Positions 4,200 through 57,482 of a stretch of 64,000 nucleotides of DNA are shown here, one piece after another. The DNA is from Octopus vulgaris (lineage: Eukaryota), in the NCBI GenBank assembly GCA_951406725.2, contig OX597815.1, positions 214,272,001-214,336,000 on the forward strand, read 5' to 3'. The position numbers were made by a program, and so were the translations under genes. Position 1 is the stretch's first letter, and every line of letters begins with the position of its first letter. The notes under the pieces were generated by a model. The model had not been told where the DNA came from. It made no database searches and saw nothing but the letters and a program-made list of their open reading frames with translations.

Positions 4200-4340
4200 A
4201 GGAGTGGCTGTGTGGTAAGTAGCTTGCTTACCAATCACATGCTTCCGGGTTCAGTCCCACTGCGTGGCACTTCGGGCAAGTGTCTTCTACTATAGCCTTG
4301 TGAGTGGATTTGGTAGACGAAAACTGAAAGAAGCCCGTTG

Positions 4341-4389
<49 letters not shown>

Positions 4390-4592
4390 CTGTGTTTGTC
4401 CCCCCAACACCGCTTGACCACCGTTGCTGGTGTGTTTACGTCCTCATAACTTAGCAGTTCGGCATGAGAGACCGATAGAATAAGTACTAGGCTTACAGAT
4501 AATAAGTCCTGGGGTCGATTTGCTCGACTAAAGGTGGTGCTCCAGCATGGCCGCAGTCAAATGACTGAAACAAGTAAAAGAGTAAAAGAGAT
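4200..4592 (+). mobile_element. tRNA-derived SINE family B (internal microsatellite, LINE-like 3' tail)
   Basis: Head GGAGTGGCTGTGTGGTAAGTAGCTTGC...GGTTCAGTCCC, central (TA)/(TG) tract, tail GGTGCTCCAGCATGGCCGCAGTCAAATGACTGAAACAAG. Many further copies in the window. Confidence 0.85.
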
Positions 4593-8660: not shown

Positions 8661-8666
<6 letters not shown>

Positions 8667-10112
8667 GAAATATTAAAATAACTAAGTCTCTCTAAAAGAG
8701 AACAGCGGCAGCGTTCCCGGAAAATAATAGTTATCGCCATACTAATATGGCATTCTTATAAAAATAAGAAAAAAGCTGTCCGCTTATTAGCTCCATGAGG
8801 CCATCGCCTTAAGTTAGCTATTTGATACACAAACTGTATCCATATAACCTTCGAACAAGGGAGGTCAGTCGCTCCACACTACTTGACCGGCAGCTACAGA
8901 CGCGTTTCAGGGTATTGCCCCTTTTCAATGCAGCGTAGCCAGCCAGTAGGTGTCGCTTCCGACAATCTCTGTTCGATGGTTTTATTTACCTAGTTTCGGT
9001 GGAATACATCCACTTGTTTTCAATAATAGAAATATTAAAATAACTAAGTCTCTCTAAAAGAGAACAGCGGCAGCGTTCCCGGAAAATAATAGTTATCGCC
9101 ATACTAATATGGCATTCTTATAAAAATAAGAAAAAAGCTGTCCGCTTATTAGCTCCATGAGGCCATCGCCTTAAGTTAGCTATTTGATACACAAACTGTA
9201 TCCATATAACCTTCGAACAAGGGAGGTCAGTCGCTCCACACTACTTGACCGGCAGCTACAGACGCGTTTCAGGGTATTGCCCCTTTTCAATGCAGCGTAG
9301 CCAGCCAGTAGGTGTCGCTTCCGACAATCTCTGTTCGATGGTTTTATTTACCTAGTTTCGGTGGAATACATCCACTTGTTTTCAATAATAGAAATATTAA
9401 AATAACTAAGTCTCTCTAAAAGAGAACAGCGGCAGCGTTCCCGGAAAATAATAGTTATCGCCATACTAATATGGCATTCTTATAAAAATAAGAAAAAAGC
9501 TGTCCGCTTATTAGCTCCATGAGGCCATCGCCTTAAGTTAGCTATTTGATACACAAACTGTATCCATATAACCTTCGAACAAGGGAGGTCAGTCGCTCCA
9601 CACTACTTGACCGGCAGCTACAGACGCGTTTCAGGGTATTGCCCCTTTTCAATGCAGCGTAGCCAGCCAGTAGGTGTCGCTTCCGACAATCTCTGTTCGA
9701 TGGTTTTATTTACCTAGTTTCGGTGGAATACATATTAGTATGGCGATAACTATTATTTTCCGGGAACGCTGCCGCTGTTCTCTTTTAGAGAGACTTAGTT
9801 ATTTTAATATTTCTATTATTGAAAACAAGTGGATGTATTCCACCGAAACTAGGTAAATAAAACCATCGAACAGAGATTGTCGGAAGCGACACCTACTGGC
9901 TGGCTACGCTGCATTGAAAAGGGGCAATACCCTGAAACGCGTCTGTAGCTGCCGGTCAAGTAGTGTGGAGCGACTGACCTCCCTTGTTCGAAGGTTATAT
10001 GGATACAGTTTGTGTATCAAATAGCTAACTTAAGGCGATGGCCTCATGGAGCTAATAAGCGGACAGCTTTTTTCTTATTTTTATAAGAATGCCATATTAG
10101 TATGGCGATAAC

Positions 10113-10118
<6 letters not shown>
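8661..10118. repeat. 362-bp tandem array (about 3 direct units) plus about 1.07 inverted unit; Penelope pLTR / non-LTR retrozyme-like
   Basis: Units start at 8661, 9023 and 9385 and look identical. Inversion at ~9731-9733 with CAT microhomology. (TA)n flanks both sides. Confidence 0.9.
9908..9949 (+). ncRNA. Minimal type I hammerhead ribozyme, U3-A8 core variant (minus-strand copies at 8893-8934, 9255-9296, 9617-9658)
   Basis: GCTGCA-TTGAAAA-GGGG caata CCCT-GAAA-CGCGTC-TGTAGC: stem I GCTGCA/TGTAGC, stem II, GAAA, palindromic ACGCGT stem III, GUC cleavage site. Confidence 0.75.
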
Positions 10119-17939: not shown

Positions 17940-19838
17940 TGAGACAGTCATTGTTGGAGGTAAGTAGTAGCAGAGTCGGAGAGTAGTTGACAGTATTATA
18001 TTTGGAGTTGAGTCGTTGATGACGGAGTGTTTTCTATGAGTAAGAGAGTTAAATAATTGTTCGTTTATTGCTGTTTGATTGTTGATGTTGTTAATTGTTG
18101 TTGTTTAATTTTTTTCCCATTGAAAGCAAAATGGAGAAAACACCAGCGGGCGTCCTTAACTGGAAAAGGATCTGAAGAGAAAACGTTGGAGATAATTGCG
18201 ATTAAGGTCGAACCAAGGAAAATGAAGGGATGTGAAAAGTTGCTGGAGAAGGATGGAGAGACGTTGAAGTTGACGCCACCTGCAGAGTTGACAAACAGTG
18301 TAACGGGACGAAGAGTTACGTATAAAACAATGAAAATAGGAACGAGAAAGATAGAGATTGCGACAGTGGAGGAAATCGAAGAGGTATTGAAAAGCATTAA
18401 AACATTAACAATTTATATAACAAGAAGAAGGAAGTATGCCACCATGGAGGTGCGCTTTGCGACAGAGGAAGAGACAATAAGATCGGAGGAGTGGGTACTT
18501 TTGCTGTCGTAATGTGGCAAACGTGTGGCCAGAGTGCGAGTAGGTAAAGTACTCCCAGAACAAGAAGAAGCATGGCTGATGACAGCCATAATGTTCAACA
18601 TGAAGGATGGGGCCAACATATTGAAGGCCATAAGGACAAATAGAATCAACTACTGGGGATACGGGATCGAGCTCACTATCCAGGCAACAATAGAAGACTT
18701 AAATCGGATTGCTGAGGAGATAGTGCTACCCGACGACTTGAGATTGAGAGTGGTGGTGGTGGTGGTGGTGGTGGAGGGCAGGCCGCCTGTATGTTTTGCA
18801 TGTGGGGAGAAAGGCCACATGAAGGCGAGGTGCCCACAGAGAGAACAGAAGGAGAAACAGGAAAGTAGAGAACAAGTAGTACAGGTAGAGATGGAAGAGA
18901 AAACAATGGAGGAAGGATTTACGGTGGTGGAAAGAAAAAGAAGTGGAAGAGCGAGCCCCCCCCCCCGCCTGGTAACCAGAAAAAGAAGAAAGAAGAGGTG
19001 GAAATGAAAGATGCGACCAGAAGGAAAGAAGACAAAATGGTGATGGAGAAAGAAAGTGAAAAAGTAATTGGAAAAGTGTGCGAGAATGAGTTACAGAAGG
19101 AGGAAACAGTGTTATTTCAGCGAGGGAGATAGATTCAGGAGTACAACTGTACGAGGGTGAAATGGAGAAATTGTTCAGAGTGGAGATAGAAAAGGAACCG
19201 GAAGTAGAAAAGAGAAAACCAAGGAAAGGAAAAAATAAATAGAACTTTGTAACATATGTAAAAAAACAAAGAGACGGAAAGAAAAATTGTAAAATTTAAG
19301 CATATCATAAGGGTAAGGTTACCCACGGATATATATTCCGAAAATGTAAAGGCCATTGTAGTCGACAAAGACACATACAAGAGACTGAGAGACATGTGCA
19401 GAAACAAGATTGACCCGGCCGGAGTGTTGGTGGAGTTCGATGAACTGCCACCCGTCGTTGAACTCAGAGACGTGGAGCCTTTCATGAGGTATTAAAATGG
19501 AAAAAAAAATGAGTAAGTAAAATTGTTTTGTTGAAAGAAAAAAGTAAAAGTGTTTCAATGGAAAGAAAAAAGACAAAAAAAGATGATTAAGAAAAAACAA
19601 TAGAAAATTAGAACGATTGTAAATAGAGTGTATAAACGTTCAAATGGTACTGCATGGGAATCAGGCCCATGCAGCAATTTCATTTTTATATAACATTTCA
19701 TTGTTATATAAATATAACATGTCATTCTCATTCGTTTTATGTTTTATATCCCCATTCACCAAGAACCACATGGCTGTAAAAATAATCTTCTTTTTTAACC
19801 ATACTGCAGTGTCACAGGTTTCTGAAATAAATAAAGAA
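17940..19838 (+). mobile_element. ORF1-only (gag-like) retroelement copy 1, near full length, decayed
   Basis: Broken ORF from ~18130 to 19494 with knuckle EGRPPVCFACGEKGHMKARC (18792-18833), an E/K-rich linker and a C-terminal domain. The 3' UTR ends AATAAAGAA and no ORF2 follows. Confidence 0.7.
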
Positions 19839-20062: not shown

Positions 20063-20887
20063 TAAATAAAGAAATATTAGTGGAACAATAATTGCAGATA
20101 TCCACTCCAATTTAAAGTGTTTGCACTATCAACAAATGAATAACCTAGTCAATTATTTTTGTACAAAATTCACTCCTTATCAGCATGCTTTCTATGAGAT
20201 AATAAATTCCTCATTACTAAATGGGTCAGTGCGGAAAGAAAGATTTTATGCCACTCTTAAGAAGAAACAAAAGAAGACTTGTTTGGATTGACCTGCTCAA
20301 TTGTTATATCTAGGACTCTTTGAAATTTAATATTTAACACTAAATTCTTGTGTAAAATTTCCGTTTCCTCCTAAGTGTAGTAGTAAATACAATTGTCCTA
20401 TAAGGACCTCTCTTGTAATGTATATATTAAGAATATAAATAAAAACAAAACAATCATTACCGCCTGGCTTTAGGTTATCCACTCATTGATAGTTGTCGCT
20501 AGAACACCGTCGCGACATACAGTATACCTTGAACATTTGGACCTCATGGAGCCCATCTCTCTCTCTCTCTCTCTCTCTCTTTATCTCTCAATTAATCTAT
20601 TTCTATCTCACCAGGTCTGACGACAACCGGTTTCTCCCAGAAAGAAATTGAGAGAGACTAACTGGCAGACAGAAACAAAGAGTGAGTAAAAGAGAAGAAA
20701 TCAACTACAGAGCAAAATGAAATGTAAAGTGGACCTCGGCAGGATTTGAACTCAGAGCCTAGAGTCGGAGCGATTACGGCAAATCAATCTACCGTTGAAA
20801 TTAGCAAATGTACCAAGTCCATTGTTCATTCCTCACTTATAATCATTCAAAAATCAGCTGAGGTTTTGCAAAATTATTTCTCATACA

Positions 20888-23800
20888 AAAGATTGTACAG
20901 CAGCTGACCTGGCTTCATCAAACCCAAGCCCGCAGGTGGGACTACCCACTATATACCAGACCACCACAGCAAACAGACACAGGATGGACACCGCCGGCAA
21001 CAACGTACACCTCACCTCGATACTCCTACTGAACATCAGAGGACTGCAAACACTCAGTAACAGGACAAAGATCCCGTTCCTGAGAGACTTTGTTGCATGC
21101 AATCAAGCCATATGCATAGCACTTACAGAAACGCACCTGAAACCGGACATAGCAGATGCGGAGTTACACATACCACAGTATGCTGTACTACGGACCGACA
21201 GGAAAGAAAGGAGTCATGGAGGTGTTGCTATGTACATCCGTGAGGACCTCACACCCCAGGTCCTCTTGTCATACTCAAACTCGGTGTGTGACACACTAAT
21301 TGTACATATTAGGCAACTTGATGTAGTTGTGTGTGCTACATATCGCCCTCCAGATGCCCCAAGCCATGTGGGCAAGTTTGAAGACTGCCTTATAAAAATA
21401 GAAGAAATTCTAACCACATTAGAACAACACATAGGTGTGCTTCTTATGGGAGACTTCAATCTGCCCAATGTCAGATGGCCCGAGGGCCTTTCTCTCCCAG
21501 GAATGACAAGATGTGAACGAGGACAGGCGAGGTCCCTCCTGAACCTCACCAACACCCTGTACATGGAGCAGGTAATACTCCAACCAACCAGGGCAGGTAA
21601 CACACTGGATCTCTGCTTCACAAATGACATGGATCTCATCCATAATGTGAAAGTGACACCGACACTACTCTCGGATCACAACATGATAGAGCTGACCATG
21701 TACGGGCCAAAAGAGAGCACGGACATGCAGCCTACAAGAAACCCTCAAAATCTTTCCAGCTTGAACTACCATAAGGCAAACTGGAAACAAATTGAGAAAG
21801 AGATCCTCAAACAAAACTGGCCTAAATGTCTCTCCTCGCCAGACATCGACGTGAAACTTCAACAATTCATGTCTGTAATGCAAGCCATATGCTACAAATG
21901 TGTCCCAGAGAGAAAGGCCACTGTACACAAGAACAAAATCCCCAGAGAGAGGAAAATTTTAATGAGACGGCGTACGAAATTTTCAAATCGCCTAAACAAA
22001 CAGATTGAAAGCAGTGAAAAGTCCCGCCTAAAAATAAAACTGTTGGAAATCGAAAAATGTCTGCAACTCTCCCATGAAAAAGAAAGAGCAGACAAAGAAG
22101 CCTGGGCTATAGAAAACATAAAATCTAACCCCAGAGCTTTCTACAGGTATGCCAAAGAAACAGCTACAGTGCACTGTAGAATAGGGCCACTCCTCGAAAA
22201 GGATGGCACACTTACAGGGAAACCAATGAGGGTAAGTGAAATACTGAATGAGCAATTCAAGAGTGTTTTCACTCCACCCCTTGGGCATCTCCAAATCACC
22301 AATCCAACTGACTTTTTTACCACTGCAGATATAAAATCAGAGGCGGCGACGATAGATTACATCGATATAAAGGAAGACGATGTAACCAAGGCTATAGATG
22401 AAATGAAAACAGACTCAGCTACTGGCCCCGATGGATTCCCGGCAATCCTCCTAAAAGCATGTAAGAGAGTCCTAGCAAGACCACTGCAGTTCCTCTTTCA
22501 GAGCTTCCTTGCAGCTGGCAAACTTCCAGGAAAACTGAAGGAAGGTAAAATATGCCCCATTCATAAAGGAGGTAGCAGAGCGGAAGCCAAGGACTATAGA
22601 CCTATCTCTCTGACCTCACACATCAGCAAGGTCATGGAACGAATAGTCAGAAGGAAGCTGATCACCTTCCTTGAAGAGAATGACTTGCTGCCCGACACCC
22701 AACATGGTTTCCGACCAGGGAGAAGCTGTTTAACTCAGCTCCTACAACACTATGACTGGGTGCTGAAACGGCTGCTCAACCACTCAAATGTGGAAGTGAT
22801 ATATCTCGACTTTGCAAAGGCCTTTGATAAAGTCGATCATGGAATGATATGTCACAAACTGCGTGATCTCAACATAGTTGGAAAACTGGGAGAATGGCTT
22901 CATGACTTTCTGAAGGATAGAAGTCAGGTGGTAGTAGCCAATGGGGCCACCTCCATTAACACACAAATAGTGAGCGGTGTTCCGCAGGGCACTGTTCTGG
23001 GACCACTACTGTTCATAATGGCCCTCTCAGACATGCCCTCAGCCACGCAGAGAGCCACGATCACAAGTTATGCAGATGATACAAAAGTTTCACAGGCAAT
23101 ACAGAACCCTGAGGACACTAAACACCTGCAATGTGAGCTGGACGAAATATACAAGTGGGCTGAAAAGAATAGCATGCAGTTCAATGCTGGAAAGTTTCAA
23201 GCTTTATACTATCAGCATGCAAAACTGAATGCAATACCCAATGAATACACTGGACCCGGAGGGATTGCAATCCCAGAGGCACAATCAGTGCGTGACCTGG
23301 GTATTCACATGAGTGATGACGCGACCTTTCATGTACATGTTGCTAAACTGACAATGAAATGTAGACGGCTGGCTGGATGGATTCTTAGAACCTTTAGAAC
23401 AAGAGAACAAGAAACCATGATGGTTCTCTGGAAGACACTTGTCCTAAGCCACTTTGACTATTGCTCTCAGCTATGGTCACCATCCAGTGTCAAGTTGATC
23501 ACAGAACTTGAGGCGATCCAACGAAGCTACACAAAGAAGATAGCCTCTATGCAGAATGTAAGCTACTGGGAAAGACTCAAGAGATTAAAATTATATTCCC
23601 TGGAGCGTAGGCGGGAAAGATATGCCATAATATACATCTGGAAGATCCTGGAGGGAAGTGTCCTGAACTTTGGCATCGAGAGTTACGCAAATGCCAGAAC
23701 TGGGCGCCACTGCGTGGTGTCTAGGACTCCAAACCTGCCATCAAGATGTAGGACAAGATACTGTGATAGCCTGGGCTTCCGAGGCCCACAGCTCTTCAAT

Positions 23801-24070
23801 ATCCTCCCGAAGAACCTGAGAGACCTGCATGGGGTGGATACAGATGTCTTTAAAATGAAGCTGGATCTCTTCCTGTCAGGTGTCCCAGATGAACCAACTT
23901 CACGGCAGGAGGGGCAGATGAGGGCAGCTGCATCGAACTCTCTCATGCACCAAATAGCAGCTGCTAGAAAGCCTCCATGAAGTGAAACCAAGTAGCAACA
24001 CAAAATGGCGGTGCCCCAGCATGGCCACAGCTCATAAGCTGAAACTAGAATCAATCAATCAATCAATCAA
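20888..24070 (+). mobile_element. 5'-truncated CR1/L2-group LINE
   Basis: Candidate TSD TCATACA at 20881-20887 and 24071-24077; (AATC)n tail; probable ORF1 C-terminus at 20889-21032 overlapping ORF2. Confidence 0.9.
20936..23980 (+). CDS. LINE ORF2: APE endonuclease + reverse transcriptase (uninterrupted; first ATG at 20984)
   Basis: APE motifs NIRGL, LTETHL, YRPP, MGDFN, LDL, SDH. RT motifs YRPISL, QHGF, YLDFAKAFD, GVPQG, YADD. C-terminal LYSLERRRERY. Confidence 0.95.
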   Translation: MGLPTIYQTTTANRHRMDTAGNNVHLTSILLLNIRGLQTLSNRTKIPFLRDFVACNQAICIALTETHLKPDIADAELHIPQYAVLRTDRKERSHGGVAMYIREDLTPQVLLSYSNSVCDTLIVHIRQLDVVVCATYRPPDAPSHVGKFEDCLIKIEEILTTLEQHIGVLLMGDFNLPNVRWPEGLSLPGMTRCERGQARSLLNLTNTLYMEQVILQPTRAGNTLDLCFTNDMDLIHNVKVTPTLLSDHNMIELTMYGPKESTDMQPTRNPQNLSSLNYHKANWKQIEKEILKQNWPKCLSSPDIDVKLQQFMSVMQAICYKCVPERKATVHKNKIPRERKILMRRRTKFSNRLNKQIESSEKSRLKIKLLEIEKCLQLSHEKERADKEAWAIENIKSNPRAFYRYAKETATVHCRIGPLLEKDGTLTGKPMRVSEILNEQFKSVFTPPLGHLQITNPTDFFTTADIKSEAATIDYIDIKEDDVTKAIDEMKTDSATGPDGFPAILLKACKRVLARPLQFLFQSFLAAGKLPGKLKEGKICPIHKGGSRAEAKDYRPISLTSHISKVMERIVRRKLITFLEENDLLPDTQHGFRPGRSCLTQLLQHYDWVLKRLLNHSNVEVIYLDFAKAFDKVDHGMICHKLRDLNIVGKLGEWLHDFLKDRSQVVVANGATSINTQIVSGVPQGTVLGPLLFIMALSDMPSATQRATITSYADDTKVSQAIQNPEDTKHLQCELDEIYKWAEKNSMQFNAGKFQALYYQHAKLNAIPNEYTGPGGIAIPEAQSVRDLGIHMSDDATFHVHVAKLTMKCRRLAGWILRTFRTREQETMMVLWKTLVLSHFDYCSQLWSPSSVKLITELEAIQRSYTKKIASMQNVSYWERLKRLKLYSLERRRERYAIIYIWKILEGSVLNFGIESYANARTGRHCVVSRTPNLPSRCRTRYCDSLGFRGPQLFNILPKNLRDLHGVDTDVFKMKLDLFLSGVPDEPTSRQEGQMRAAASNSLMHQIAAARKPP

Positions 24071-29984: not shown

Positions 29985-30600
29985 TACGAGGGGCGTTCAA
30001 TAAGTAATGCTCCTGACCCACTTGCAGTTGTTTGATCTAGCTGAAATTTTGCATATGCACTTATTGATATCTCTATAGATTACGTGGCGAATTACAGCTC
30101 TGAACTAATTGTGGTTTCTGATTTACAGGTGTTTGAACTGAGTCAAGTGTGAAATGGAGCCTGTTGAGTGTCGAGCAGTGATCCGGTTTTTGTATTTGAA
30201 AGGACGCACACCACGGGAGACTTTTGATGAAATGAAAGTAACTTATGGTGATGATGCCCCATCATATGACCTTGTAAAACGCTGGCATTGTGAATTCAAA
30301 CATAGTCGGAACTCTGTGGAAACAGCTCCCAGATCTGGTCGCCCCCTTCTGCCGTTGATGAGACGTCTGTCCGTCAAGTTGAGGCTGCCATTTTGGAAGG
30401 TCAACGCATAACTCTTCGCCAAATAGTCCATGAGGTCAAGATTAGTACCGGGTCTGTGGAAACTATCATTCATGACCATTTGCATATGCAAAAGGTGTCT
30501 GCCAGATGGATTTCCAGGTTGCTCACACCTTTCCAGAAGCAAGAACGCGTTGAGTGCTCGAGGATGAATTTGGAGATGTGCCAAGAAGATGAGTCAAAAT
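29985..30600 (+). mobile_element. Mariner transposon 5' half (frameshifted transposase)
   Basis: TIR start TACGAGGGGCGTTCAATAAG. Translation RAVIRFL..G..APSY..VKRW..EF..RSGRP then KVSARWISR (WVPR-like linker); breaks off at 30600. Confidence 0.85.
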
Positions 30601-30769
30601 CTTAATTTTGAACTGTTTAAGAGGTTTATTGCCTCATTGTGGTTTTTAAAAAAAAAGAAAAAAAGAACAATGTTTTAAAGAAGCGAAAGTCGGCGGGCGC
30701 TTTTCGTCTTCTCCCATCCTTATATCATCATCATTCATCTCATTAATGTCTCTGTCTTGGTTTTGGAAG

Positions 30770-31986
30770 GTAGCTCCTGCCAGGCTGCACTCAGCAACAT
30801 CGCTGAGAACTGATAAAGTGGTTCTTCTATCTGTATATTTTGAGAGACGTGCTTCCAGGGTTAGGGTGGAGGATATACCCCCCAGAAGTGGATGTAGCCT
30901 GGCTGGTAGCTGCCATACTGCTAGGCATGGAGGAGGAGGTGGTGGTACTCCAGGCCACCTGAACAACCCACAGGAACTGGCAAGGACAAAGTCTTGATAT
31001 GGTGGTACAAGTTGCCGCGGAAGATTTAGAAAATATGGTGGAGACAATCACGGTCGGAGACGCAACACTGAAAGTCATAGTGGAAGGGAGGATTCCGCGG
31101 TGCTATAAATGTGGTCTAAAAGGCCACATTAGAGCGGATTGTCCTCCAACACCTGAGAAGGCTAAAAAGAGACAAGAGCGTGAGAAAGTGGCTGGAACTC
31201 CACAATCCGCAGACGCTGAGGAAAAGAAGAGTGAAGCGGCATCACAGATAAAGACCAATACCAGCGTCGAAGAAGAGATGGACAACGAATGGGGAACAGC
31301 TGGGAAAAGAGAGAAGAAAGAGAAAAAAAGGTACACGCTGTAAAGGACGACCCCTCCATCTCACACCCACCCAGCTCCCACTCTAACCCAACCACTCCCT
31401 ACAGACACCATCTCCCTCCATGCCCTACCTGGCATAAACACAAGCTCAAATATACAGGAGCCCCAAATTCCCCCACGCTTGCCCTTGGAAAAATATGTTA
31501 TAGTGTACAAGTGGAGGCCATGAAGAAGTGCATAACGAAATTGACTCGTGTGACAGTATCATAAAAGTGGACGTCTCAGGAGTGAAAAGGATGCCTGAGA
31601 ACCTTTATTGTGTAGTGGCAGACACAGCATATATATATATATCAAAATTAAAGAACTTCGGGGAAAATCATGGCTATGAGTGCTGGGTCAAGAAATTGGA
31701 CACCAGCTCAATGCCTAAGCAAATAAGTGTTTACGATATTTCAAAGAAGCACAATGTAAACAACCTTCATAAGAATGATAATTATCTGTCGCTAATATTT
31801 GTGTCATAAACTAGTGTTTAAAAAAATGTATCAACTGGTTCAATGAAGTCGCTCGGAGGTGGGGAGGAACGGTTTCATTTCATCTTTCATTATATTAATT
31901 CATTCTTTCTATCCGTTTTGTTTTTTGTCCCCACCTTGTGCTGTCTCCTCTATGTCCGGCCTTCATGGCCAATTTCATAAAATAAA
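30770..31986 (+). mobile_element. ORF1-only retroelement copy 2 (5'-truncated, decayed)
   Basis: RVRVEDIPPEVDVAWL...EGRIPRCYKCGLKGHIRADC (31101-31142), C-terminal domain at ~31490-31809, 3' UTR ending AAATAAA joined to SINE B. Confidence 0.7.
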
Positions 31987-32127
31987 GAAGCTTGCTTCCA
32001 AACCACACGGTTCCAGGTTCAGTCCCACTGCATGGTAACTTGGACAAGTGTCTTCTGCGATATCCTCGGGCCGACCAAAGCGTTGTGAGGGGATTTCGTA
32101 GACAGAAACTGAAAAAAATCCAGTCAT

Positions 32128-32176
<49 letters not shown>

Positions 32177-32359
32177 AAAATAGTAAAGAGTGAAAAAACG
32201 ACAGAAGGCTTAAATGTTAAAAAATATATATTTTTGCGTCAAAATGTCTGGAGAATATTGGAAAATTTTTTTCCTCCTTAAAATGACATAATTTTATAAT
32301 TTTTAAAGAAACTGTCCCTCATATTCACCCACGTGCTTTACCAAACAAACTTTCTTATC

Positions 32360-32406
<47 letters not shown>

Positions 32407-32685
32407 ATGATATAGTATAATATAATATATATATGTATAATATAATATATATATATGTATGTATGTATGTGTGTACGTATGCATTTGTGTTTGTTCTCCA
32501 TCATCGCTTGACAACCGATGTTGATGTGTTTACGTCCCTGTGACTTAATGGTTCGGTAAAAGAGACTGATAGAATAAGTACTAGGCTTACAAAGAATAAG
32601 TCCTGGGGTTGACTTGTTCGACTAAACGAGATACTCCAGTATGGCCGCAGTCAAATGACTAAAACAAGTAGAAGAGTAAAAGGGA
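31987..32685 (+). mobile_element. SINE family B lacking its first ~20 nt, split at its internal microsatellite
   Basis: GAAGCTTGCTTCCAAACCAC... to 32130; the 3' half resumes at ~32480-32685. Confidence 0.75.
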
Positions 32686-32706
32686 ACATATATATATACA
32701 TATATC

Positions 32707-32772
<66 letters not shown>

Positions 32773-33239
32773 CTGATTGAAAGCAACGCATCCATTTCAA
32801 AGTAAGCTTATCTTTATTTTCTCTCATCCTTTATCTAATTCCTTTTTTCCTCCCCTTCACCGTTTTCTATCTCTCTGTCTGTCTCTCTTTCCCTCTTTTT
32901 CCGTTTCTCTCTCTCGTTGTTCACACGTGACCATCGTCCATCCTTCTCTTCCTCACGTGATCATCTTTCTTTTCTTTCACGATTGTCGTAAGGATAGCAC
33001 GTATCCTCTCTTTCGCTTACATCTTGTCTCTTGTAAAAAAATGTTTCTCCAGCATTCGCTACTTTTACTCTCGTTTTGGTCTAATGACTTTGTATAAGTC
33101 CCAAATTTTATTTTGGCACGTATAGGAGCAACTGTCTTCGAAGACTCATATTGTCGTTCAGTGCTCGAAACGAGGAGTAGATAGACAGCTGACATAGATA
33201 CATACATATATTTGCATGTATCTATGTGTGTATATATAT

Positions 33240-33427
33240 CATGAAAGATCGCTAGCCACTGCACATTATTTATTTTCTCTCCTTGTTTCTTTCTATGTCC
33301 CTTTCATTGAAAGAGCGTAGGCTCGAAACGTCAGAGACTTTTTCACTTCCCGAACGTAATACTAATACATCTATTTGTTGTCTACGCCACCTGTCTTCGT
33401 CTTTTGTTTTTTTTTTGTAAATTCTCC

Positions 33428-33430
<3 letters not shown>
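33240..33430 (+). mobile_element. Short Penelope-related repeat with degenerate minimal hammerhead; relatives at ~17660-17850 and 6500-6545
   Basis: TTGAAAGAGCGTAGGCTCGAAACGTC followed by the shared tail CCACCTGTCTTCGTCTTTTG and (TA)n. Confidence 0.5.
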
Positions 33431-33489
<59 letters not shown>

Positions 33490-33499
33490 GGCACCGATT

Positions 33500-33610
33500 A
33501 TTCTTATATCTATAAGAATGCCATATTAATATGGCGATAACAATTAATTTCCAGTGAACGCTGCCGTAATCTCTTTTATAGAGACTTAGTAATTTTAATA
33601 TTTCTATTAT
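33500..33610 (+). repeat. Diverged partial copy of the 362-bp array unit
   Basis: ATAAGAATGCCATATTAATATGGCGATAAC...GAGACTTAG...TTTCTATTAT; same terminus against (TA)n as position 8661. Confidence 0.8.
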
Positions 33611-33645
33611 ATATATATATATATATATATTATTTATATTCTATA

Positions 33646-34844
33646 CATCATCATCATCATTGTTCGACCGTGGTCGAGACAATGGAATTTACCATGTTAC
33701 GCCAGACTTCACGGTCCATCATGGCATTACGGAGCTCCTGTTGCTGGATGCCTGTATCCTTGGAGATTACATCAGGGAAGGAGAGTGTGCGCCCTCTGGT
33801 ATTGCGAGTAGATGGCTTCCAGAAGAGAAGAGTAGAAATTACCTCTTTTTCAGCTCTACAACAATGGACTCTCTTACCTTTCACAAGAGATGTCACAGGT
33901 GGTAGTTTCCCATATATTTGCATTTTGGTTGGATGGCGCTTCCACGAGAGATTTTGAGCTCTAATAAGGAGGCGAGTGTAGGTTCCATCCAACCGCCTCT
34001 CAAGCTTCTTTGATAACGTCCAGGTTTCTGAGCCATATAGTAGAATTGGTTCGACTGTGGCTTTGAAGATTTCAAGTTTGAAGTCTCTACTTAGATTTGA
34101 TGACCAGATTTTATGCATGTCATTACAGGCTGACCAGGTCATACCCTTTCTAGTTAGAAAGTCTTTTCCAGATGATGATATGTATGACCCAAGATATTTG
34201 TAATCAGAAACCATATTTAAGAGCGCATTGTTGAGAGTATGGATGATGCAATCACTGTTGGACAGGCACTTGTTTATGTATTCAGTCTTGGCCTCATTGA
34301 GGTAAAGACCTACACAATTTGAGGCTTGTTCGAGAGATTGTAAAAGAGACTGGGCATTGGAGAGAGAATCACTGATAAGAGCGATGTCGTCAGCAAAGTC
34401 AGTGTCTGTCAAGTACTCAGCTGGGTGTCTGGAACTTCTTCTTGGTTTTATTTCAAAGCCCTTGCCAGAGATGGTATCAACTGACATACGTAGCACATAA
34501 TCAACAACAATGAGGAAAAGAAATGGGGCGAGTGTGTCTCCCTGCAGTATTCCGGCTTTGATTGAGAAAGATGGTGTTTCTCCGTCAGGGGTTAAGATGG
34601 TTGAAGACGTATCTGTGTAGAGGACCTTGATGGCAGAAATGATCTTGTCTGGTATCCCATAGAGCTTAAAGATTTCAAACATCTTGTACCTATCTACAGA
34701 ATCGAACGCTTTAGAAAAGTCTACAAATACCATTGCAAGATCTCGATTAAATGCTTTTGATTCTTCAATAAGTCTGCGTAGGCATAGTATCTGGCTCAGC
34801 GTTGAGCGCCCATGTCTGAATCCATTTTGGTTCTTTCGGAACAT
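33646..34844 (-). mobile_element. 5'-truncated RTE-clade LINE (RT domain to stop, ORF 33657-34844)
   Basis: QNGFR, FVDFSKAFD, GILQGD, FADD, YKYLG, LLYGSETW. The stop codon overlaps a (TGA)n tail. Confidence 0.9.
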
Positions 34845-35069
34845 ATATGTATGTATTAATTGATTGATTGATTGATTAATTGATTGCCTTCCTGTGAAAT
34901 CTTCACACCAATTTATAGCAACTGATTCAGCTGAATTCTTTCCGAAAGCAAAGATACGAAGGTATTGATTCCTCTCCTATAGTTTTATCCATATACAGAT
35001 ATAGTAATTTTCTATGGACATATACATGTACTCGTATGTTTCCTGTTGTATTTCTACCATTGTGGACAT

Positions 35070-35275
35070 ATTCTCTTATTTGTTTCAGTCGTTTGACTGC
35101 GGCCACGCCTATAGTCGAACAAATCGACCCCAGCACGTATTCTTTGTAAGCTTAGTACTTATTCTATCGGTCTCTCTTGCCGAACCGCTAAGTGACGGGG
35201 TCATAAATACACCAGCATCTGTTGTCAAGCGATGCTGGTGGGAAAACACAGACACACAAACATATACAGATATAT

Positions 35276-35330
<55 letters not shown>

Positions 35331-35468
35331 CGACAGGCTTCTTTCAGTTTCCCTCTACCAAATCCACTCACAAAGCTTTGGTCGGCCTGGGGCTATAGTA
35401 GAAGACACTTGCCCAAGGTGCCGCCAGTGGGACTGGACCCGGAACCATGTGGTTGGTAAGCAAGCTAC
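35070..35468 (-). mobile_element. SINE family B lacking its first ~20 nt
   Basis: Minus strand begins GTAGCTTGCTTACCAACCAC directly after the AATAAA of ORF1-only copy 3. Confidence 0.85.
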
Positions 35469-36818
35469 TTTATTTCATAAAATTTGTCATCATAGACAGT
35501 ACAAAGAGTGTGTAGCTTTGCGGGCCGGACAAACACATTAATGAATGATAATGAAATAGAATGAATAAATGAGAGACGAAACCCAACACCCGCCGATTGG
35601 ATTTTTCTCGAAAACATATTTTCTCTTTTTAAAAAATCAATATGTTTCAAACCTCTTACAAGAAGGAAGCACTAAAACCTCTTACTTAACATGTTTTTTT
35701 TTAAACACACAATTGAGGTTATAAACCACTACAAATAATACAATAAGCTGAGGTTTCAAACCCTATAACGAGGGTCTTTCACCTCCTACTCTTCGATACA
35801 TCCATCGATATATTCATCATTATCTTCAATGCCGCTTGAGTTCCTGTATCCCGCCATTTCCCATGCCTCACTCATGTAGGACATGTAAGGGCATGTAAGG
35901 GTCACCCGGCCATTTGCGACACTCCTTCCCAAATCCTTTAAGCCTTTCCCACAAGGGAAACCTTATGACTTCCTCTGCTATCTGCGGAGGCCATTCGGGA
36001 TCCCGTGTGAAGGGCATATCTGCTGTCTCTTTATGTTCTTCTACTATTTTTCCACCTCCCCGCCCTTGTAGAAAAAGATAATTAATTGATCATCTTTAAG
36101 GGTGGGGGTGGTTTCTTCCACCGTGGGTGGCATAACTTCGGGACATGCAGACGGCACATCATATCCCCGCTGAGATGACCCGTTCTTCTTCCTTCTTTTT
36201 TTCTTTTCTTTCTGACTTCGGGAGAGTGGAGCTCTTCCGCTTTGTACGGAGACTCTCCCCCGCCTCCCGAAGCCTTAGGTTCCTTCGGCGGGCAACTATT
36301 GTTGCCCGCCTTCTGCCTTTTTAATCGTTTTTTAGTTGAGGAGGCTGAAGCCTCCTCGACCACATCCACCTCTCCCTTTGACCGGGTAGGGGAAGTGGCA
36401 TCTAGTGACTGTTCCATGACCTTACCATGGTCCTGAGGGCAGTTTCTTTTAATGTGGCCTGGCTGCAGGCACGAGTGACACTTGTATCACCGGATACCTG
36501 CAGCGAGCCATTTTCAAGAGATCTGGAAAAACCAGATCTGTTGCGGCCGATGGGGTCCACAGGGTCAAAATCGCTTTTGACCCTTCCCAATCGACCGCCG
36601 GCAATACCCTTACATTTAAGAGCCAGGGCCCGCCATCCCCCAGTCCCCATCGCATGGTATCTTCAATCCAATCCGCTTCGGTGCCTGGGAATAACCCACA
36701 TACCCAGGCTCGTATTAATTTTCTTCCACAATATGACGGAAGGAACAGAATTTCCTTGCCTTCTAAAGGCTGACTCGCAAACCGGAGAGCCTTTTCCCCG
36801 TTGTCAAACAGCAACCAT
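35469..36818 (-). mobile_element. ORF1-only retroelement copy 3 (5'-truncated, decayed)
   Basis: LFLPSYCGRKLIRAWV..PGTEADWI; knuckle CHSCLQPGHIKRNC at 36480-36439; basic linker; C-terminal domain; 3' UTR ending AAATAAA. Confidence 0.7.
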
Positions 36819-36944
36819 AGAGAGAGAGAAAGTGTATGTGTGTGTATGTGTGTTTGTGTGCATGCGTGTGTGTATATGTGTGTGAGTGAGTGACTGTGTA
36901 TCCGAAACTGTGAATATGCTTTCCAGAAGATAATACTCTATATA

Positions 36945-49560: not shown

Positions 49561-49980
49561 AGGCACAGGAGTGGCTGTGTGGTAAGTAGCTTGCTTGCCA
49601 ACCACATGGTTCCGGGTTCAGTCCCATTGCGTGGCACCTTGGGCAAGTGTCTTCTACTATAGCCTCGGGCCGACCAAAGCCTTGTGAGTGGATTTGGTAG
49701 ACGGAAACTGAAAGAAGTCCGTCGTATATATGTATATATGTATATATATGTATGTGTATGTGTATATGTTTGTGTGTCTGTGTTTGTCCCCCAACATCGC
49801 TTGACAACCGATGCTGGTGTGTTTACGTCCCCGTAACCTGGCGGTTCGGCAAAAGAGACCGATAGAATAAGTACTAGGCTTACAAAGAATAAGTCCTGGG
49901 GTGGATTTGCTCGACTAAAAGGTGGTGCTCCAGCATGGCCACAGTCAAATGACTGAAACAAGTAAAAGACTAAAAGAGTA
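49561..49980 (+). mobile_element. SINE family B, full length and young-looking
   Basis: Complete head, CORE-like CCTTGGGCAAGTGTCTT, microsatellite and tail. Confidence 0.9.
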
Positions 49981-54799: not shown

Positions 54800-54946
54800 C
54801 GCAGGAGTGGCTGTGTGGTAAGAAGCTTGCTTCCCAACCACATGGTTCCGAGTTCAGTCTCAATGCGTGGCACCTTGGGCAAGTGTCTTCTGCTATAGCA
54901 GAAATGAGTGGATTTGGTAGACGGAAACTGAAAGAAGCCTGTCGTA

Positions 54947-54988
<42 letters not shown>

Positions 54989-55205
54989 TGTGTATATGTT
55001 TGTGTGTCTGTGTTTGTCCCCCTAGCATTGCCTGACAACCGATGCTGGTGTGTTTACGTCCCCGTCACCTAGTGGTTCGGCAAAAGAGACCGATAGAATA
55101 AGTACTGGGCTTACAAAGAATAAGTCCCGGTGTCGATTTGCTCGACAAGGCGGTGCTCCAGCATGGCCGCAGTCAAATGACTGAAACAAGTACAAGAGTA
55201 AAAGA
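54800..55205 (+). mobile_element. SINE family B, full length
   Basis: Head GCAGGAGTGGCTGTGTGGTAAGAAGCTTGC through the tail. Confidence 0.9.
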
Positions 55206-55258
55206 CTAATATATATATGTATATGTATATGTATATGTATATATATATACGTATGTAC

Positions 55259-55797: not shown

Positions 55798-56214
55798 GTT
55801 TTTACGTATTATTTTTGTATTCATATTCGTGTAACATCGTCCGTTTTCCGTCCTTGTTTTGTATACATTCGAAGCTTTCTTTTCCTTGGGGCTGGCCAGA
55901 TTGGATCAATCTCAAGATTAATCAGCCTAAATTGCGAGGATGATCCGGTTCTTGACTGAAGATTGAAGGCTTCGAATGTCCTGTCGATGTTTTTTGTATC
56001 GTCTCCAAAATATTTTGCGTTCTTGTCCCAGTTTGTATTTTTATTCATATATATAGTTGGATAAATAGATACATAAATTGATAGATATAGATAGATAGAT
56101 GAATAGAGAGGCAGATAAAGAGACGGACATAAATAGATAGATAGACAGACAGACAGATAGATAGATGGATAGATGGATAGATAGATAGATAGATAGATAG
56201 ATAGGTAGATAGAT

Positions 56215-57482
56215 ATGTTTCTTTATTAGCCACACAGGGCTGCACACAGATAGAACAAATTACAAGGTAGAGCTTTTCTTTTGAAGGTTTAAGAAAGAAA
56301 AAAAAAAAAAAAGGAAGGGGGGTTTCGATCAAAAGGGATCGTAAAAGGAGAGAAAGAGGACAAAAAAAGGGGGGTTTAAAAAAAAGGGGGGAGGAAAAAA
56401 AATTGATCAATAGGGATCGTTATCACAGAAATGTCAATATGAAGTGTAAAGGGGAGGACAGGTGAGGTTTACCCGTGCAAAGAAAAGCCTACGGAAAAGA
56501 CCACGGTAACCTTGGTCAATGATGTCACATTTTATATTTCTTTTTTTTTTTTTTTTTGCAAATAAGCAACTCTCTGTTTTCGATTTCTGGGTTCATAGGA
56601 CTATGCTCAAGGTGGCTTCGTCATTCATACGTGCCATTCTTGCTACATTCACCCATCTTTTTTTAAAACATTCGCTAGACAAAACTTGCCTCTCTACTCT
56701 CACTTTCCTTTTCAAGTGGTACTTGAAGAAGTTGATGAGAGATTGACCAGAGAGGAAAGTGTTTGTCTCCAATCCTTTCAGACGCGTCCACCAGATACAT
56801 TCTTTCGCCATAGCCACAAGGATGATGAAAATAGCTCTTCCTTCCCGTTTGAAGGAAGGAGGCGTGACAATATTGACGATAGACTCAGCTGATAAACCGA
56901 CTCGTCCCACACGTGACAGCAGTTGTTCGACATAAGCCCACAGGTCGGAAATTGTTGGACACTGAACGAGTGCGTGCAGAACGGTTTCGTCGCTCTGACC
57001 GCATCTCGGGCAGGTCGGCCCCGTGTTTCTCGAGCCGTGTCTGTAGAGCTTATCCCGAACGGGTAGCGCTTCTCGGTAGCACTGCCAGGCCAGGGATCTC
57101 TGGAAGTTGTGCATGGGCCCTGGCCCGAAAGTCGTCCTGAACAGGCGGGTCAGGTACTCCTCGTCGACGTCCAGGTTCGCCCCGAGCTCGTCGTCGTACC
57201 TCCTCCACTAAACCCCTATAGAATGCTTTGGTTGTGTTGAAGTCACTTAAGGTCGACCCAGGACGGCAGAGTTGCTTGAGAGCAACGCGACACTCGCGGT
57301 GCCATTCGCCCTTCCTCGGCCTCTTTTTGATCCACGACTGCAGTTCGGTCATGGAGACGAGCTGCGGGAAAGCGTGCCTCACAAACGGCGACCACACCTG
57401 TTCACCGTCGTCTACATAGAGCCAGAGATGCCGCAGTCTCAGCGCGTGTCTGCGCATCATCAACCACGGCATGCCCAGCCCT
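56215..57482 (-). mobile_element. 5'-truncated L1/Tx1-clade LINE (ORF2 C-terminus with zf-RVT, plus 3' UTR)
   Basis: GMP..., [39 protein letters not shown]. Frameshift near 57200; stop at 56593; ends AATAAAGAAACAT in (TATC)n. Confidence 0.85.

Follow-up and report, generated by a model that had tools for sequence, protein, structure and literature searches.

A LINE lineage and its ORF1-only passengers occupy a single base of a dispersed SINE in Octopus vulgaris, probably with pairing of element RNA to the target

Several long interspersed elements (LINEs) of the Tx1 clade insert into other transposons: Tx1 into Tx1D in Xenopus, Tx1-Mar into Mariner-N4_AMi, Tx1-9_AMi into Harbinger and Tx1-8_Crp into long terminal repeat (LTR) elements. 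The targets named in passages of that survey outside its supplements are DNA transposons, LTR elements, small nuclear RNA genes and microsatellites, with no short interspersed element (SINE) given (PMC4494074). Mutsu enters the 5S rRNA genes of zebrafish, and its subfamilies match 5S variants (PMC5340908); for R1 elements, use of the target RNA flanking the 3' and 5' ends has been proposed (PMC2718515), and annealing has been described in SART1 and R1Bm (PMC7265360). LINEs that carry only the first open reading frame (ORF1) comprise HAL1 (L1), HeT-A (Jockey) and Ag-Sponge (CR1), with no Tx1-type example given in the passages of PMC5786205 that treat them. In octopus, a CORE-SINE, OR1, has been named (PMC4824008), and a repeat annotation reports 13 recently active L1-Tx1 families in a main text without the words "target" or "nested" (PMC13282606). 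Here, we analyzed a 64,000-nucleotide (nt) stretch of Octopus vulgaris DNA (assembly GCA_951406725.2, contig OX597815.1, positions 214,272,001 to 214,336,000, forward strand; the window), in which a preliminary description had noticed that two ORF1-only elements, copies 2 and 3, join the same position of one SINE family. Site-specific insertion at one SINE base is almost certain. The fuller reading, that a LINE lineage and its ORF1-only passengers enter this base, likely by target-primed reverse transcription with element RNA pairing with the target at both ends, is in our judgment probable.

With the transposon-targeting LINEs of the Tx1 clade, as far as the cited passages describe them, the octopus system shares an apurinic/apyrimidinic (AP) endonuclease, an interspersed mobile element as target and the likely mobilization of nonautonomous partners to it. 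It differs from them in that the target is a SINE entered at one nucleotide and in nearly one orientation, whereas Tx1-Mar uses two regions, and in that its passengers encode ORF1 and are not SINEs. A length of ~5.5 kb, two ORFs, a junction ~20 nt into an RNA polymerase III (Pol III) unit and subfamilies fitting target variants are held in common with Mutsu; the Mutsu target, however, is an essential clustered gene rather than a dispersed SINE, and the passages on Mutsu mention neither ORF1-only partners nor a target-complementary motif in an untranslated region (UTR). The R1 elements of 28S rDNA likewise have a fixed 3' junction and tandem arrays spaced by one duplication (14 bp in R1), and annealing has been proposed for their 3' read-through and, in one R1 group, for 5' flanking target RNA. 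Clade and target are different, in the octopus elements the 5' homology is part of the duplication, which it overwrites, and no foldback UTR motif is described in the R1 passages cited. Like HAL1, HeT-A and Ag-Sponge, the passengers combine ORF1 with a LINE-derived 3' end and lack ORF2, but they are sequence specific and form at least two deep lineages with many subfamilies, all with one autonomous partner and one target. The SINE, like OR1, is an octopod tRNA-like SINE. No report of a LINE targeting a SINE at one nucleotide, or of this LINE family, was found in the literature searched, which left Repbase, Dfam and subscription journals outside it, so prior annotation is possible.

In the intact SINE at 49567, both window junctions correspond to base 20, which bears out the shared position that had been noticed (features are listed in Table 1). 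Copy 2 extends to 31986 on the forward strand and meets the SINE sequence GAAGCTTGCTTCC from 31987, and copy 3 extends to 35469 on the reverse strand and meets GTAGCTTGCTTAC from 35468. The preliminary description had placed the junction at the A box; one fixed position stands, but the cut comes 3 nt after the A-box-like TGGCTGTGTGG, or 1 nt after it when the shared AA is assigned to the target, and so lies between the A box and the B box and leaves the A box itself intact. The copies are divergent, as stated there, with DNA likeness confined to ~40 terminal bases and with homologous ORF1s. The absence of a SINE head upstream of either copy was also confirmed when we inspected both flanks; no head is visible because the 5' parts of both copies are missing (~545 nt of copy 2 and ~713 nt of copy 3, compared with natural full-length relatives), copy 2 being fused to the 3'UTR remnant of another member.

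Next, we looked into how often this junction recurs across the genome. The junction 20-mer had 107 exact matches versus 2 for the reversed control, and the count that had been suggested as a check, AATAAA followed by the 13-nt SINE target, gave 1,474 exact matches versus 0 for the control, far above the two copies first seen. Among 120 element 3' ends chosen blind to their flanks (four sets of 30, drawn from 53, 56, 40 and 166 matches), 111 met the 13-mer at offset 0 (≤3 mismatches), and poly(A) was present in 0/120. A passage of PMC4494074 calls a LINE target specific when more than 20% of its flanks are of one type, and 111/120 lies above that level. The nine ends that did not abut the target consisted of two at SINE sites altered by a deletion or displaced by 2 nt, four at non-SINE sites, which start with GT, GTAG, GTAGCT and GTAGCTT, and three unlike the target beyond a few bases. 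One insertion (L300/L317) had the opposite orientation and occupied the symmetric GGTAA^G within the near-palindromic target, and the reverse-orientation pattern had 2 exact matches genome-wide, one of them off-SINE.

Full-length copies of four families showed the same layout, namely, SINE head, 13-bp duplication, element, duplication and SINE body (with both junctions listed for 14 N1, 18 N2, 4 older autonomous and 35 young autonomous copies; N1 and N2 are the lineages of copies 2 and 3). A head also stood upstream of the 18 credible copies among 22 listed as truncated (28 to 1,254 nt), which retained −9 to +15 target bases; the other four rows (L061, L081, L083 and L224) were excluded as spurious or mis-anchored head matches. 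Two loci, L285 and L150, bore a private variant in both copies of the duplication, and in tandem arrays, neighboring copies were separated by a single 13-mer with no SINE body between them. One such array (L333-L336, G000:C1:29.27 Mb) holds four ORF1-only copies of at least two subfamilies at ~2-kb spacing, with one 13-mer between each. Elements were more alike than the SINE bodies around them (young family, 98.8% versus 92.5%; N2, 95.9% versus 87.5%; 25 bodies each).

The SINE head, the target duplication and the heterogeneous SINE subfamilies that the preliminary description had predicted under targeting were thus all found. Its other branch, a composite retroposon in which element and SINE body and tail move together through the SINE's partner LINE, could draw on the two window copies without a visible head and on the likeness of the SINE tail to the 3' end of another window LINE at 20843-24048 (82% over 50 nt). 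It is refuted by a duplication that lies inside the SINE and encloses the element only, by heads upstream of full-length and truncated copies alike, by SINE bodies that belong to several subfamilies and have diverged further than the elements, and by arrays without an intervening body, and it retains hardly any probability. The sheer abundance of the SINE, with 114,132 exact sites of head plus target (a count that includes a few 5' junctions), is what chance microhomology or gene conversion between repeats would have in its favor. Yet at that SINE density, a random end would meet the site in ~1 of 10,000 cases or fewer, whereas 111/120 ends did; the enrichment beyond density, whose absence had been named as grounds for dropping the idea, is present, and we give chance a negligible probability.

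The driver of these insertions is a 5.4-kb L1/Tx1-type LINE with an intact ORF1 and an endonuclease-reverse transcriptase (EN-RT) ORF2. In one copy (L197), ORF1 (488 amino acids [aa], with a CCHC knuckle) and ORF2 (1,140 aa) are both open, and the profile domains, zf-CCHC in ORF1 and Exo_endo_phos, RVT_1 and zf-RVT in ORF2, fit the layout of the L1-like (L1/Tx1) group. A protein search of the genome revealed many further copies with long open ORF2 frames. Among solved structures, which exist for few clades, human L1 ORF2p was closest to ORF2 (E value = 1e-66, residues 13-877, versus 1e-20 for R2 proteins). The closest named reverse transcriptase relative among the matches listed was a hypothetical protein of Argonauta hians (64% identity); no named Tx1 reference occurred among the 120 matches listed of 797 or the 10 clusters looked up, where the named matches were hypothetical proteins. 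Sequence-specific insertion into a repeat, a trait common but not universal in the Tx1 clade, is present, and membership of that clade is likely. A young sister LINE (L211-L216, e.g., G000:C5:29.18-29.20 Mb and C9:59.2 Mb) has an ORF2 of 1,148 aa that is 65% identical and forms tandem arrays with a 5.28-kb period. At five of six loci, both of its junctions bear the same 15-nt motif from a different AT-rich repeat, and it likely has a specific target of its own; no target-complementary motif was seen in it by eye.

The passengers have an ORF1 and no ORF2, with full lengths of 1.7 kb (N1) and 2.07 kb (N2). Their ORF1s are ~29% identical to each other and 43% (N1) and 25% (N2) identical to the autonomous ORF1. 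N2-type subfamilies are many, with ORF1s 43 to 70% identical, and the ratio of nonsynonymous to synonymous substitution (dN/dS) was 0.11 to 0.40 at a dS of 0.9 to 3 in a sample of 12 frames picked for being open; these values point to purifying selection on the ORF1 of the ORF1-only lineages. The ORF1 resembles ZCCHC3-like clusters (score, 0.90), and a homologue search found no sequence homologue of it. Over the last 53 nt, N1 is 79 to 83% like the autonomous family, while N2 has the common hairpin and end. A terminal Watson-Crick hairpin was present in 101 of 166 distinct 3' ends (92 GCC/GGC, 6 GTC/GAC and 3 GCT/AGC); 15 others had an imperfect hairpin, and 50 had none by this pattern. The features of the HAL1 type are all present, i.e., ORF1 only, target duplications as bounds and a 3' end shared with an autonomous LINE. 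The ORF1-only elements work like HAL1 and are not assigned to HAL1 proper. Full-length copies in many families (e.g., L163, L139, L333 and L241) begin with CTTCCGG or GCGCATG motifs, candidate promoter sites of the ETS and NRF1 types; in N1, the motif overlaps the duplication.

Element families and the SINE variants that they occupy match in age, with old families in old variants, middle in middle and young in young. Among the first 100 of the exact sites, the 13-mer of empty SINEs was GT..TAC in 53, GT..AAC in 21, GA..TCC in 17 and mixed in 9, and SINE bodies (25 each) were 79% alike for GA..TCC, 89.6% for TAC and 95% for AAC. Likeness of element ends was 74.5% for N1, 81.7% for the older autonomous copies (mixed), 95.9% for N2 and 98.8% for the young autonomous family. 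N1 stood in GA-type sites in 26/30 cases, N2 in TAC in 27/30 and the older autonomous copies in TAC in 20/30, while the cleaned young set was in AAC in 30/42, TAC in 10/42 and GA in 0/42. That set had been cleaned to 43 as the selecting 20-mer also caught other families, and 13 of its loci were chosen for an open ORF2, not for their flank. The AAC form of the duplication goes together with a variant of the SINE body, just as it does in empty SINEs, which makes the 3' copy of the duplication genuine target sequence.

We then evaluated the homology between element and target at both ends. The 5' duplication ended in CTAAC in 35/35 full-length young copies, including 7/7 whose 3' copy was not AAC (this tabulation did not require CTAAC; another, of 26 rows, required it and merged identical contexts). 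An extra T at the 5' joint accompanied 5/7 mismatched targets versus 5/28 others (P value = 0.012). On the simplest reading, the 5' end of the element RNA would lie a few bases within the upstream duplication. As for the 3' end, an element that ends at AATAAA without a tail implies, by standard polyadenylation geometry, a transcript that runs into the downstream duplication, and the transcripts of these elements would do so. At L223, an inverted element end carries 8 target bases after the head, a single case that fits a read-through template. This inverted duplicate of the 3' end, between SINE head and body (L223:1420-1540), possibly arose by priming from both strands of the palindromic target.

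A 3'UTR motif, AGCT[A/T]C, is complementary to the target and lies ~65 to 85 nt from the end in autonomous elements and 40 to 55 nt from it in N2-type elements. Its variable base agreed with the target at 112 of 184 discovery junctions and disagreed at 2, with 1 other and 69 without the motif; the covariation, predicted beforehand, was seen at 18 of 40 held-out junctions, with 0 discordant and 22 without the exact motif. Complements of at least 7 bases occurred in 22/31 autonomous ends, 30/56 N2-type ends and 0/21 N1 ends, versus ≤2 in controls; folding probabilities are partly circular, the motif having been defined by complementarity. In motif-masked trees, target and motif changed five times each (N2) or three and two times (autonomous), never in opposite directions. 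The motif is real, and what it does we infer from these patterns.

The junction patterns, as read from the DNA, would most likely be due to pairing of element RNA with the target. In this scheme, a nick made by the ORF2 endonuclease at GGTAA^G would start target-primed reverse transcription on an RNA that continues past AATAAA into the duplication; this read-through would anneal to the nicked bottom strand and fix the exact start. At the other end, the RNA would carry ~5 to 7 target-like bases that anneal to or overwrite the top strand, and the 3'UTR motif may fold back on the read-through or bind the displaced target strand. These homologies would bias each family to the SINE variant of its master copy, such that families track the turnover of SINE subfamilies, and the ORF1-only elements would make ORF1p themselves but depend on ORF2p supplied in trans. 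For the pseudo-palindrome GGTAAG-n7-CTTACC, a double nick placed symmetrically was disfavored, since truncated copies with 12 to 15 target bases retained point to a top-strand break further downstream. A search for the empty site at L281 in four public runs found no joint spanning the element and was uninformative, as contigs break within the SINE. Among the public runs that contain the element, none is recorded as RNA.

Several observations weigh against a guiding role of the RNA. The truncated young copies favor AAC too (~6/11), and thus 5' annealing alone is insufficient for the variant preference; three near-full-length copies (L278, L279 and L281) begin a few bases inside the element. The exact motif is missing at 22/40 held-out and 69/184 discovery junctions, and one of these 22, L377, has a degenerate motif that is discordant. 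Independent pairs in the trees agreed in ~2.8/3 and 2.0/3 with none opposite, and three per tree cannot reach significance. N1, the lineage of copy 2, inserts equally precisely without a complementary motif, so the motif is not required. Finally, the ends of the element RNA were deduced from DNA junctions alone.

The precision of N1 would be expected if specificity and its shifts resided wholly in the ORF2 protein, the RNA homologies being by-products or fine-tuning of the junction. The reverse-orientation insertion, which has only GGTAAG and a weak downstream match in common with the others, agrees with this, as do passages placing target choice mainly in the endonuclease (PMC4494074) and giving each Mutsu subfamily its own 5S variant (PMC5340908). 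We nevertheless regard this explanation as unlikely, since it leaves unexplained the overwritten 5' bases and a UTR motif that switches with the target at two positions. Alternatively, the base may be specified by sequence and the variant preference may reflect age, with young, Pol III-bound or open SINEs more accessible in each period. The SINE variants (79%, 90% and 95%) and element families (75%, 82 to 96% and 99%) do rank in the same order, but the youngest family is in the oldest variant in 0/42 cases although that variant makes up 17 of the first 100 exact sites, and the covarying motif and the 5' overwrite would need a separate cause; we consider this improbable. Beyond the pairing of element RNA with the target, it is conceivable, if doubtful, that a short target-complementary RNA module, made up of the 3'UTR motif, the read-through and the 5' target bases, acts as a self-updating guide, rewritten with each SINE turnover, by which LINE and passengers would chase the SINE through at least three generations and disable its promoter copy by copy.

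The head of the target SINE has A- and B-box-like motifs that align with tRNA genes, with a score of 39 versus a shuffled median of 26 and maximum of 41 (200 shuffles; 30 tRNA genes only). Neither ARAGORN nor Rfam called a tRNA in it, Rfam giving chance microsatellite matches only. True tRNA genes were rejected as the target, the motif being found in 0 of the 30 examined (four amino-acid classes plus Cys and Glu sampled). The segment after the B box is putatively CORE-like, as in CORE-SINEs such as OR1. The LINE at 20843-24048, with an open EN-RT frame of 1,045 aa, is, going by the tail likeness, the likely mobilizing partner of the SINE. Pol III promoter function would probably be lost on insertion because the A box is separated from the B box.

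Table 1. Coordinates of the junction elements and reference SINEs in the window
Feature	Position	Strand	Evidence
Copy 2, ORF1-only element of N1, 5'-incomplete, ORF1 decayed but with a CCHC knuckle	30760..31986	+	84% identity to full-length L139 over 1,240 nt; zf-CCHC
GGCC-n5-GGCC terminal hairpin in copy 2, putative signal for recognition by ORF2p	31958..31970	+	
13-bp target duplication, 3' copy at copy 2; oldest SINE haplotype, GA..TCC	31987..31999	+	
SINE body without head, from base 20, following copy 2	31987..32685	+	
Remnant of the 3'UTR of a further ORF1-only family member, fused to copy 2	30602..30757	+	~90% identity to L376/L382/L387, stops 54 nt before their 3' end
Copy 3, ORF1-only, lineage N2, first ~713 nt missing	35469..36819	-	93.5% identity to full-length L163
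3'UTR motif of copy 3, AAGCTAC, reverse complement of target GTAGCTT	35512..35518	-	
Terminal hairpin of copy 3, GTC..GAC, two-sided change from GCC..GGC	35486..35497	-	
13-bp target duplication, 3' copy at copy 3; middle-aged SINE haplotype, GT..TAC	35456..35468	-	
Headless SINE body downstream of copy 3	35069..35468	-	
Intact empty SINE, reference; target base 49586	49567..49980	+	
Further intact SINEs	4200-4590 and 54803-55208		
Copy 1, related ORF1-only family, other 3' end, no SINE junction, last ~70 nt missing	18000..19756	+	

The family of copy 1 has a different end, and the absence of the SINE junction from copy 1, already noted in the preliminary description, extended to all 19 relatives examined; its members end in AATAAAGAAA, are frequently tandem and have varied flanks. 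The 3'UTR remnant next to copy 2 is likely a collapsed tandem neighbor of it, and upstream it is abutted by a decayed transposase-like, putatively mariner-like sequence at ~30140-30600. A third L1/Tx1-like LINE, a 3' fragment at ~56210-57481 on the reverse strand, is 59% identical to the SINE-targeting ORF2 and runs into an (ATCT)n microsatellite. At 8661-10118, an exact direct repeat with a 362-bp period is followed by an exact 388-bp inverted copy, and identity of 100% points either to an event of very recent date or to an artifact of the assembly.

About 1.3% of the exact sites are occupied (1,474 versus 114,132), so unless master copies are the preferred targets, SINE activity is probably little affected. 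The system extends the range of nucleotide-precise targets to a dispersed SINE and reveals ORF1-only lineages that are both long lived and sequence specific. For work on targeted insertion, a compact LINE that has an AP endonuclease and a ~20-bp target is also worth attention. The way in which site-specific LINEs switch targets can be studied in this one genome, which offers three dated variants of the target, element families that match them, autonomous copies that are intact and natural mismatches between RNA and target, and with these, protein-based and RNA-based targeting can be separated.

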